The notes under the pieces were generated by a model, which had not been told where the DNA came from, did no database searches, and saw nothing but the letters and a program-made list of their open reading frames with translations. Both the position numbers and the translations under genes were made by a program. A stretch of DNA of 64,000 nucleotides from an uncultured Acidobacteriota bacterium (GTDB taxonomy: Bacteria > Acidobacteriota > CAIWXX01), in assembly GCA_903916735.1 (NCBI GenBank), contig CAIWXX010000053.1:26260-90259 (forward strand), written 5' to 3'. Numbering within the stretch: position 1 is the first letter of the stretch; every line of letters begins with the position of its first letter. This document shows, in pieces, positions 33,041 to 33,190 of the stretch.

Positions 33041-33190
33041 GTGCACAAAATGGCAAGACCAGTGACAGGGCATAATCGTGAATTCCTCTCAGGAAGCCGG
33101 GAAGAGAGGGAGCAGGAATGGCTTATGAAACCACCGCTGGTCCACATAAAAATCCGTTCCTGCTTTCTACTCTTCCTGCGTTCATCTTCG
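33041..33190 (+). repeat. copy A (3'-truncated, diverged) of a ~200-bp intergenic structured repeat family
   Basis: gtgcacaaaatggcaaga…cgtgaattcctctcaggaagccgggaaga…ggaatggcttatgaaaccaccgctggtccacataaaaatccgttcctgctttct…tcttcctgc shares long identical blocks with copies at 60365-60579 and 48037-48262. Confidence 0.8.

Follow-up and report, generated by a model that had tools for sequence, protein, structure and literature searches.

The 64-kb stretch of DNA analysed here (the window, at its whole length) contains three similar blocks between genes, and they raise the question of what kind of sequence has been copied and by what means. The initial annotation had described a three-copy intergenic repeat family, either a structured RNA or a MITE-like element. 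The family was real, and the blocks are copies of a dispersed, discrete, non-coding hairpin repeat, as one part of that description implied; the terminal inverted repeats (TIRs) of a MITE were not present. The blocks represent a lineage-restricted, non-coding, dispersed repeat of ~230 bp, which is probably a non-autonomous mobile element, 'MITE-like' in the broad sense of the term.

Copies in the window and in related genomes

The three homologous blocks in the window, copies A, B and C, were recovered with nhmmer at E-values of 1e-41 to 1e-82. Copy B (48029–48261; E = 1e-82) is full-length and lies inverted, so that the element's forward strand is the minus strand of the window. Copy C (60362–60585, plus strand; E = 6e-77, with alignment) is full-length apart from an 8-nt deletion in the left arm of its palindrome. 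Copy A (33019–33185, plus strand; E = 1e-41, with alignments) is 3′-truncated and covers model positions 3–170 of ~235. What remains extends from the 5′ flank through the left arm and the apical region into the inner right arm; the outer right arm is missing, together with the terminator-like hairpin and the 3′ end, and the truncation point lies after ...CTTCCTGCGTTC. Its left edge, previously set at 33041, is located ~20 nt further left, at about 33018. The truncation and the proximity of a (GA)9 array had been recognised correctly, the array (32952–32969) ending 48 nt upstream of the copy. Copies B and C are 91–92% identical, and copy A shares 78–83% identity with either. The 8-nt difference between B and C had been taken for a duplication in copy B; since GGAATGCA is present in A and B and also in two full-length copies outside the window (D and E, see below), it is instead a deletion in copy C. 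No fourth copy was found with nhmmer or in the other searches of the 64-kb window.

All three copies are intergenic, and both orientations relative to the neighbouring genes occur, as had been described. Copies A and C each precede by ~180–290 bp an operon that starts with a regulator and from which they diverge. B and C form inverted repeats bracketing a 12-kb operon. The surroundings of the copies in the window comprise an adjoining type III secretion cluster and the bracketed operon, which is predicted to serve amine/aldehyde catabolism. A composite transposon formed by B and C was considered and rejected, the interior being an ordinary catabolic operon of normal composition without a transposase. 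Two flanking neighbours of 375 aa each, considered as paralogues, were unrelated proteins. A role as cis-regulatory leader was discarded because the orientation of the copies relative to their neighbours was inconsistent. Neither an empty site nor presence/absence polymorphism was observed, gene spacing at copies A and B being identical in all strain contigs.

Copies A, B and C belong to a larger family, a ~230-base non-coding hairpin repeat at ~20 sites, a number that is the total over several related MAGs and not a count per genome. The family was searched for with phmmer in 1.84 billion representative proteins, using the spurious 95-aa ORF over copy B as the query. The search gave 16 element-derived ORFs plus the members of their clusters, with ~18 different 3′ flanking tails, a sample with an ascertainment bias, since a protein database admits only copies with open frames. 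The repeat is thus not restricted to the three sites initially described: the ~18 additional loci belong to MAGs of this lineage, and at least three datasets are represented among them. DNA was available for three of the external loci: a full-length copy with 88% identity (copy D), a full-length copy with 74% identity (copy E, locus L078) and a 5′-truncated copy without its 5′ half (copy F, locus L079). Contigs of the external loci had unrelated gene contexts, namely DUF4390-ntrYX, the region upstream of a CapD-like gene, and NRPS/FHA-hydantoinase. The family has subfamilies. The 5′ variant of copy A (...AGACCAGTGACAGGGCATAAT...) also occurs in a full-length external copy (P0365/P0383), and copy E forms a divergent subgroup with P0366 and P0380. 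Some copies sit very close to genes: in copy D, the left TTAG includes the TAG stop codon of the upstream gene, and the ORF of P0366 ends 4 nt ahead of the next gene.

Searches elsewhere gave no genuine match to the element. The only match of the loop motif among 185,579 GTDB genomes was a chance match in a Saprospiraceae coding gene. The same motif gave five chance matches in the JGI metagenomes, none of which extended, and a 21-mer of the left arm gave none there. Searches of IMG/VR with three motifs returned chance 16-mer matches or nothing, and blastn against plasmids and phages gave no match. Relatives with 62–67% PurH identity (L074–L076, one of them syntenic) carried no copy. Its copies are thus far confined to a single, uncultivated lineage of bacteria, in which they are dispersed.

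Boundaries, hairpin and conserved blocks

The family shares a sharp 3′ boundary, ...GCGTTAGG. In copy C it is found at 60566–60585 (plus strand; GCGGCTATGCAGCGTTAGG), where a small GC hairpin is followed by a TTAGG junction. Alignment placed the same boundary in C, D, E and F, and the ORF products of ~15 other loci confirmed it: their similarity to copy D ends at positions 230–236, after which the ORFs continue into unrelated sequence. Likewise, B and C are 91% identical within the element, and their flanks show no relationship from the boundaries outwards. The small hairpin (TGCGGCTATGCCGCA in copy D; GCGGC-TAT-GCCGC) lies 1–2 nt ahead of the right junction; copies D and F carry it, and a weaker form is found in B, C and E. 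D and E have the tetranucleotide TTAG at each of their junctions, B has it on the left, and C and F have it on the right, whereas copy A has TTAA at its left junction. This near invariance fits a target-specific duplication, a recognition tetranucleotide or a part of the element itself, and a duplication is not separable from the element ends.

On the forward strand, the left TTAG junction is followed by a 65-nt 5′ flank (..GGTGAAATCTGTGCACAAAATGGCAAAAGTTGTGA..ATCGTGAATT) and an imperfect palindrome of 100–110 nt, in which a purine-rich left arm (AGGAA-type) and a pyrimidine-rich right arm (TTCCT-type) surround the conserved apical segment TGAAACCACCGCTGGTC.A.ATAAAAATCCGTT. The element is completed by a terminator-like hairpin, weak and followed by a T-rich tail, by the small GC hairpin and by the TTAGG junction. 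The inverted repeat CCTCTCAGGAA/TTCCTGAGAGG, which had been described as terminal, is present, but ~65 nt of conserved sequence precede it and ~55 nt follow it. The internal palindrome GGAATGCAGG/CCTGCATTCC was also confirmed, and the two are parts of the same long imperfect hairpin. Terminal inverted repeats were not found: compared as an inverted repeat, the element ends match at 9 of 20 positions, which is close to chance (TGTCTGATCGG... and ...GCTATGCCGCG are not complementary), and the only strong inverted repeat is internal (60428–60456/60499–60527 in copy C). A conserved hairpin at the left end was not found in the copies either.

The central palindrome spans 48087–48194 in copy B (~40 pairs; arms 48089–48121/48160–48192, 85% complementary) and 60428–60527 in copy C (86% complementary). 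In copy A (33085–33183), the inner stem alone is complete (33093–33106/33170–33183 and 33111–33124/33151–33164), with a minimum free energy of −46 kcal/mol on the forward and −40 kcal/mol on the reverse strand. Folding supported the structure suspected initially. The ~100-nt hairpin was kept in all five copies whose DNA covers it, including the 74%-identical one, in which an indel re-registers the arms, and copy B folded as a whole with z-scores of −4.5/−4.7 as RNA. As single-stranded DNA, the hairpin was more stable than shuffled sequences on both strands (z ~ −5, 0 of 200 shuffles; −5.0/−5.2 for copy B, −5.2/−5.0 for copy C). Its stability was equal on both strands, and the substitutions favoured neither. 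The forward strand always had the lower whole-copy folding energy, an indication of strand that was rejected as a composition effect, since shuffles differed equally; the hairpin alone showed no consistent strand preference.

The terminator-like module was flagged by a consensus scan on the element's forward strand in copy B (48049–48077, minus strand; GATGGTTGTCGAAGCCATC then TTGTTTGGTT) and copy C (60537–60565, plus strand; a 7-bp stem, a 5-nt loop and a TTGTTTGGTT tail). Copy E has a hairpin with a T-rich tail and a different stem sequence at the homologous place (L078, 445–467). The module is weakened by mismatches in D and F and missing in A. Its T-tail is interrupted (TTGTTTGGTT), and the segments folded no better than shuffles (z −0.4 to +0.9).

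The apical segment was the least variable part (11% variable columns, compared with 20–36% elsewhere), and contains the short palindrome ACCA-CCGC-TGGT (RACCA-N4-TGGTY); copy E departs from its motif by several substitutions, and copy D by an insertion of 3 nt. The two-block motif TGG[CT]A-N7-TGA was present in all five copies that have the 5′ flank. Invariant blocks measured 24, 17 and 13 nt, and their clustering was only slightly above chance (P = 0.004–0.03 with the indel counted per column, 0.02–0.07 with it counted once), a weak signal. This clustering and the terminator-like hairpin retained with a new stem in copy E hint at a sequence- or RNA-level function beyond selfish spread.

A probable mobile repeat and its competitors

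The element has been copied as a discrete unit with fixed ends to ~20 loci, and it decays by truncation at either end. The discrete boundaries, truncated copies, subfamilies and insertions tight against genes favour a non-autonomous mobile repeat, which we consider the probable explanation. A transposase encoded elsewhere in the genome would then have spread the element in trans; among the window proteins scanned with Pfam/NCBIfam, which were the neighbours of the copies, neither a transposase nor a partner element was found. The asymmetric ends without TIRs, the TTAG found just beyond the left end and again at the right one, and the hairpins suggest that a single-strand (IS200/IS605- or REP-type) or an ERIC-like mechanism fits better than that of a classical cut-and-paste TIR MITE. 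Once inserted, a copy could affect its surroundings. A transcript crossing it in either direction would gain a stable hairpin of ~35–40 bp, which could serve as a processing or stability element, and a copy in forward orientation would also supply a weak intrinsic terminator. Homologous recombination could use pairs of inverted copies, B and C for example, as substrates. The assemblies showed behaviour typical of repeats, which was counted for a mobile repeat: one strain contig terminates at copy A, and reciprocal chimeric ORFs were found (P0390/P0393 and P0370/P0374).

A family of paralogous small-RNA genes, in which each full-length copy is its own transcription unit, is a weaker rival that we regard as rather unlikely. 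The conserved 5′ flank would contain the promoter and the terminator-like hairpin would stop transcription, yielding an RNA of ~140–170 nt dominated by the long hairpin, with the conserved apical sequence as a seed or protein-binding site. The terminator-like hairpin with its T-rich tail on the forward strand of B, C and E, the deviating stem of copy E, whose G-U pairs work on the forward strand only, and the low variability of the apical segment would all be expected of such genes. The same applies to the two-block motif of the 5′ flank and to an orientation independent of the neighbouring genes. A promoter, however, could not be recognised: no sigma-70-type promoter was detected in the 5′ flanks of A, B, C, D and E by a scan limited to certain promoter types. 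TGG[CT]A-N7-TGA resembles the −24/−12 element of sigma-54 promoters, but GA replaces GC at −12 in all copies and the candidate was rejected; to our knowledge, the GC at −12 is nearly invariant. Canonical sigma-54 sites were not above chance in the window. Comparison with known RNA families was negative as well. Rfam, which the initial annotation had suggested consulting, gave no matches at gathering thresholds across the whole window. In E-value mode, copies A, B and C matched only plant and animal miRNA precursors (14–24 bits compared with thresholds of 60–135), and these sub-threshold matches reflect a generic long hairpin; tRNA and tmRNA genes were not found. Both strands form the hairpin equally well, and its covariation is too sparse to prove an RNA: in four sequences, from which the scored structure was itself derived, 93% of the cells were paired, only 3 of 71 pairs were changed on both sides, and 24 of 500 shuffles were as good. 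The terminator segments, moreover, fold no better than shuffles. Finally, it is untypical of small-RNA genes to be spread over ~20 loci, with a copy that lacks the putative promoter half (F), one that lacks the terminator (A) and others that abut stop or start codons.

The two readings could be joined. The element would then be mobile and encode a functional structured RNA that acts in trans, while an HUH/Y1-type or other enzyme, recognising TTAG and the hairpins, would move it in the form of single-stranded DNA. Such an RNA could consist of the long hairpin with its apical sequence, or of the CU-rich, anti-Shine-Dalgarno-like right arm with the terminator, and might be a regulatory sRNA or a guide-type RNA analogous to transposon-encoded omega/bridge RNAs. 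We hold this to be unlikely; if true, it would add an RNA family without Rfam counterpart from a deep, uncultivated Acidobacteriota-related lineage.

Also unlikely is a module acting at the DNA level, be it a site of protein binding, a recombination site or a portable regulatory cassette, the copies of which spread secondarily. A host protein would bind the apical palindrome and the AGGAA/TTCCT arms. The short palindrome within the conserved apical sequence and the strand symmetry of the hairpin are consistent with such a module, as are the bracketing of an operon by B and C as inverted repeats and the divergent position of A and C upstream of regulator-led operons. Against it, the copies have heterogeneous contexts, truncated ones persist, the apical motif itself is altered in D and E, and a candidate for the binding protein was not found.

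The open frame over the element is not coding, judging from how it varies. Variable columns were evenly distributed over the codon positions (17/20/17 and 6/5/6), in agreement with the earlier remark that the overlapping short ORFs are conserved only at the nucleotide level. A conserved stop codon is absent, the tail of the ORF runs past the boundary into flanking DNA that is different at each locus, and P0371, P0379 and P0380 are frameshifted. A small protein gene of ~44 aa (M[TA]YETTAGRYKNPFLLSSLPAFLRGSGAMVVEAILFGCGYAALG) or a 20-aa peptide (MKPPLV.IKIR...), for example a type I toxin carried on the repeat, is hence already disfavoured and seems very improbable. Many copies keep the frame open, and the small ORF is annotated by gene callers, but a protein database takes only copies with open frames. 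Three indels in the small ORF preserve the frame (D and P0369 each gain 3 nt, E loses 9) and its C-terminal half is hydrophobic; the +3 indel falls within a slippage-prone ACC-ACC repeat. The 20-aa frame is preceded by an AGGA Shine-Dalgarno sequence 7 nt upstream, whereas its start is ATG or TTG, copy A has lost its stop, and almost every change within it is non-synonymous.

A decayed local segmental duplication, immobile, functionless and confined to this region, would account for three copies within 30 kb, of which A is truncated and more diverged, and is effectively refuted by the ~18 further loci on other contigs and in other datasets and by boundaries that are identical in all copies with unrelated flanks.

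As a mobile repeat, the family is undescribed but of an ordinary kind, dispersed hairpin repeats being common in bacteria. Its recognition shows that ~30 database entries are translations of a hairpin repeat, which accounts for spurious "hypothetical protein" calls; broken contigs and chimeric joins in the lineage's MAGs are explained by it too. The repeat also marks sites where transcripts may gain a strong hairpin or a weak terminator: beside the type III secretion cluster, around the amine/aldehyde catabolic operon, and between DUF4390 and ntrYX. If its ends are handled by a TTAG-directed single-strand transposase, it would represent a new non-autonomous element, and if the hairpin is a functional RNA, a new RNA family, in either case from a poorly known phylum-level lineage.

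Comparison with known repeat families

The element is small (~230 bp), non-coding, multi-copy and dispersed and has discrete boundaries, features that it shares with MITEs; the comparisons with known systems made here are of architecture and occurrence. The ERIC/IRU sequences are non-coding imperfect palindromes of at least 100 bp, which are intergenic, often transcribed, and without an associated transposase or clear target duplication. The element resembles them as a dispersed imperfect palindrome that occurs in either orientation, has internal indels and would give a long hairpin to transcripts. It differs in being about twice as long, in flanking its palindrome with ~65 and ~55 nt of conserved, non-complementary sequence, and in carrying a terminator-like module and TTAG at both junctions. 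A sequence relationship to ERIC/IRU is not expected in a different phylum, and the element is without plasmid or phage matches.

The Correia (NEMIS) elements of Neisseria, RUP and bcr1 are TIR-MITEs. Such elements are co-transcribed, can carry promoter or terminator activity, and occur as full-length and internally deleted variants; those of the Correia type have TIRs and a defined target duplication (TA). Like these three families, the element is small, multi-copy, intergenic, close to genes and hairpin-folding; in contrast to the Correia type, its inverted repeat is internal and its ends are not complementary. The absence of TIRs, the asymmetric ends, the hairpin near the right end and the fixed tetranucleotide that directly precedes the left end and recurs at the right one (TTAG...TTAG) are shared with IS200/IS605 derivatives (PATEs) and REP/RAYT systems, and the equally good folding of its hairpin as single-stranded DNA is a further likeness. 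The central palindrome of ~100 nt is, however, far longer than the end hairpins of IS200/IS605, and a conserved left-end hairpin was not found. Among the window proteins scanned, neither a Y1 (TnpA/RAYT) nor a TnpB gene was encountered.

The repeat-borne sRNA and type I toxin loci Sib/QUAD and LDR of E. coli are 150–500-bp intergenic repeats with short ORFs, structure and terminators, and were first recognised as repeats. The element shares with these and with other multi-paralogue sRNAs the intergenic location, the short ORFs, the strong secondary structure and, as a terminator-like module, a possible terminator. It differs from Sib/QUAD and LDR in that its ORF is without coding constraint and no promoter was found, and in that its copy number is higher and both truncated copies and copies abutting genes occur.

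Copies in the window and anatomy of the element

The repeat was present three times in the window, as had been proposed from the sequence alone. Alignment, repeat finding and profile search recovered copy A (33019–33185, + strand), copy B (48029–48261, − strand) and copy C (60362–60585, + strand), with profile-search E-values of 1e-41 to 1e-82; no fourth copy, whole or partial, was detected in the 64 kb by repeat finding and profile search. Copies B and C were 91–92% identical across approximately 221 aligned positions, and A was 78–83% identical to both. Copy A started about 20 nt further left than in the initial annotation and ended after ...CTTCCTGCGTTC, with the last ~65 nt missing. 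All three copies were intergenic, flanked by ORFs with good Pfam matches or by long ORFs: a 140-aa ORF with a sigma-70-family factor gene and a glycerate kinase gene (A), sodium:dicarboxylate symporter and C39 peptidase genes (B), and an AsnC-type regulator gene and a 117-aa ORF (C). A perfect (GA)9 array (32952–32969) was located 48 nt upstream of copy A, in an unusually long intergenic region (~740 bp) between glycerate kinase and the first secretion-cluster gene. That type III secretion or flagellar-type export cluster (~13000–32400, − strand) lies directly downstream of copy A and is headed by the sigma-70-family factor gene (31642–32367); in strain contigs the same genes carried the Pfam labels YscJ_FliF, FliH/SctL, T3SS ATPase, HrpB1_HrpK and needle-like.

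The anatomy was drawn from an alignment of six copies, A–C and three DNA copies taken from other metagenomes. Copies D (contig L077; 88% identical to B and C) and E (L078; 73–74% identical) were full-length, and F (L079/L080) was reduced to the 3' half, beginning at the apical ...CGAAATAAAAATCC. With a slash marking the junction, the left end read TTAG/T[AG]T[CG]... in B, D and E, TTAA/T in A and AAAG/T in C. The right end read ...GC[GA]/TTAGG in C, D, E and F and TCATG in B; in most other loci, TTAGG or TCAGG was implied by the peptides. The 5' flank spans 65 nt and includes two well-conserved motifs, GGTGAAATCTGTGCACAAAATGGCAAAAGTTGTGA and ATCGTGAATT. It is followed by hairpin arms, AGGAA-rich on the left and TTCCT-rich on the right, for which several pairing registers are possible. 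The conserved apical segment contained a mini-hairpin (ACCA-CCGC-TGGT) and an A-rich run. A terminator-like module, a 7-bp hairpin then TTGTTTGGTT, was flagged in B and C by a consensus scan, and a small GC hairpin (GCGGC-TAT-GCCGC) lay 1–2 nt before TTAGG at the right end. The two ends had no complementarity to each other, and the inverted repeat once called terminal proved internal in the alignments. The two inverted-repeat motifs described earlier do exist, but as parts of one long imperfect hairpin of ~100–110 nt, found by inverted-repeat analysis. The supposed 8-nt duplication in B was instead a deletion in C, since the 8 nt are present in A, B, D and E.

Distribution beyond the window

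The loop motif had a sole match among 185,579 species genomes, in a coding gene of Saprospiraceae and by chance; two motifs gave no match extending past the motif in JGI metagenomes, and the element had no match in IMG/VR, plasmids or phages. The source lineage is sparsely sampled, the nearest glycerate kinase being 44–49% and the nearest PurH 62–67% identical; one PurH relative carried the label "Acidobacteriota bacterium". No copy was present in the 16–21 kb read around each PurH in these relatives, one syntenic contig included. In the closest relative with readable DNA (L075; JGI 3300004481, Ga0069718_16240690; PurH 67%), positions 4600–11545 had the gene order of window positions 37536–44338 (WD40, LplA, sigma-54 response regulator, HtrA-like protease, small ORF, PurH), and synteny was lost on both sides of this block.

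Since gene callers translate the repeat, a 95-aa ORF over B was searched against 1.84 billion representative proteins. Sixteen further "proteins" (46–149 aa) contained the element-encoded M[TA]YETTAGRYKNPFLLSSLPAFLRGSGAMVVEAILFGCGYAALG, and their 90% clusters added further variants. Counted by distinct 3' tails, approximately 18 loci lie beyond the window, a few of which may be chimeric assemblies. In about 15 loci the similarity to a full-length copy stopped at element positions 230–236, which points to a common sharp right boundary ...GCGTTAGG. Subfamilies were apparent: the 5' variant of A also occurred in a full-length copy elsewhere (P0365/P0383), and E, P0366 and P0380 formed a divergent group.

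Copy D was situated between DUF4390 and ntrY-ntrX on 150–170-kb contigs. Because these contigs come from the window's own samples, its host is probably the same species. It takes up the greater part of the 360-bp gap before ntrY-ntrX and is oriented like these two genes, and its left TTAG (L077 118–125) contains the TAG stop of the upstream DUF4390 gene. At another locus the ORF over the copy ended 4 nt ahead of a CapD-like gene, and in another MAG a copy was flanked by an NRPS/PKS gene on one side and an FHA-hydantoinase cluster on the other. The family seems to be confined to a single uncultivated, Acidobacteriota-related lineage. It is undescribed, since it matches nothing in Rfam or the DNA collections searched, but it belongs to a well-known class, the dispersed intergenic hairpin repeats or MITE-like elements of bacteria.

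The gene table of strain contig f5UeeeMl (56 kb, sample ERZ1426812; window ~33200–33530) ends at glycerate kinase, so that the contig apparently stops at copy A or close to it, a repeat-associated assembly break. Reciprocal chimeric ORFs (P0390/P0393 versus P0370/P0374) combined an N-part from one locus with a 3' flank from a different one; P0395/P0397 versus P0396/P0398 and P0386 versus P0388 also belong to this set, in which some ORFs have the same element part but run into different flanks. Such ORFs reflect either genuine recombination among repeat copies within the population or artefacts of metagenome assembly.

Secondary structure and alternative readings

As single-stranded DNA, the hairpin had z-scores of about −5 on both strands, and none of 200 shuffles was equally stable. 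Whole-copy RNA z-scores were −4.5/−4.7 for B and −1.9/−3.7 for C. The long hairpin was preserved in each of the five copies that span it, including E, where the right arm has lost 9 nt and pairs in a shifted register. Its strand preference was inconsistent (A and D favoured the forward strand; B, C and E the reverse). Whole-copy folding energy was lower on the forward strand in every copy, a composition effect, because shuffled forward sequences were lower by the same margin. In four full-length sequences 93% of cells paired; double changes occurred in 3 of 71 pairs, marginally above shuffles and for a structure derived from the same four sequences. The comparison indicates that the hairpin structure is conserved across copies, with RNA-level selection unproven. 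No tRNA or tmRNA was found, and Rfam 15 gave no match in the whole window at gathering thresholds. Permissive E-values returned solely eukaryotic miRNA-precursor models (14–24 bits versus thresholds of 60–135), which reflect a generic long hairpin.

A family of sRNA genes would accord with the terminator-like module on the forward strand, an apical segment that varies little (11% of columns versus 20–36% elsewhere) and a slight clustering of invariant blocks (P ~0.02–0.07, indel counted once). In copy E, a terminator-like hairpin stood at the equivalent position but was built on another stem sequence (GGGGTTGCG...TGCGGCCTC, then CGTCTTTGGT), with G-U pairs that can form on the forward strand only; this hairpin is the best hint of forward-strand function. 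The terminator-like segments, short and G+U-rich, were no more stable than shuffles. We nevertheless consider sRNA genes unlikely: a promoter-like site was not found in the 5' flank, a sigma-54-like TGG[CT]A-N7-TGA was without the −12 GC, canonical sigma-54 sites were no more frequent in the window than by chance, the hairpin is strand-symmetric, and truncated and gene-abutting copies speak against independent genes. A DNA-binding or recombination module is very unlikely.

Several short ORFs cross the copies, and public assemblies list one of them (48029–48316, 95 aa) as a gene; the frame open in most copies starts at the ATG of GGAATGAC. Conservation of these ORFs only at the nucleotide level, as initially suggested, was borne out. 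Variable columns were spread evenly over codon positions (17/20/17 in five DNA copies, 6/5/6 in close copies), and ORF products of different loci shared an element-encoded stretch and then ran on into unrelated tails of 2–60 residues; a conserved stop is thus absent. Some copies were frameshifted (P0371, P0379, P0380). A 20-aa frame (MKPPLV...) started with ATG or TTG, had lost its stop in A, and its changes were almost all non-synonymous. The codon-even variation, variable stops and frameshifts show that the element is non-coding and make a real small protein extremely improbable. A local decayed duplication can practically be dismissed in view of the ~18 further loci.

Nature of the element and likely consequences

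The element is most likely a non-autonomous mobile element, copied as a discrete unit, because it has fixed ends and unrelated flanks despite 91% internal identity, occupies ~20 loci in unrelated contexts, is truncated at either end (A, F), has subfamilies and presses against genes, as where the TTAG of D overlaps the upstream stop. Local duplication is at odds with these features, and independent sRNA genes agree with them less well. Among the scanned neighbours of the copies there was no transposase, and neither an empty site nor a polymorphism was detected; all strain contigs had identical gene spacing at A and B. It is quite unlikely that the element serves as a mobile vehicle for a functional structured RNA and owes its movement to a TTAG-directed single-strand transposase.

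A transcript crossing a copy in either direction would gain a hairpin of ~35–40 bp, and forward copies would add a weak terminator; copy B is located 3'-terminally in its operon, and D separates DUF4390 from ntrY. A 12-kb operon (48262–60361, all − strand) of normal composition is enclosed by B and C, an inverted pair that could mediate its inversion by homologous recombination. The operon encodes an AsnC regulator, two class-III aminotransferases, an aldehyde dehydrogenase, an amino-acid permease, a metallophosphoesterase, an aldehyde:ferredoxin oxidoreductase with ferredoxin, and the C39 peptidase. A DnaG-like primase fragment, split or short (44274–45753; Toprim, Zn-ribbon in strain annotation), adjoins an HTH_3 (Xre-type) regulator and a DUF4160 gene in the interval from the WD40 gene to the symporter; this group could be the remnant of a mobile or phage-derived module.

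A classical TIR-MITE was rejected, as terminal inverted repeats are absent. IS200/IS605-derived or REP-type single-strand elements, or ERIC-type palindromic repeats, are candidate relatives, which the element resembles in three respects: it lacks terminal inverted repeats, has the same tetranucleotide outside its left end and at its right end, and contains hairpins.
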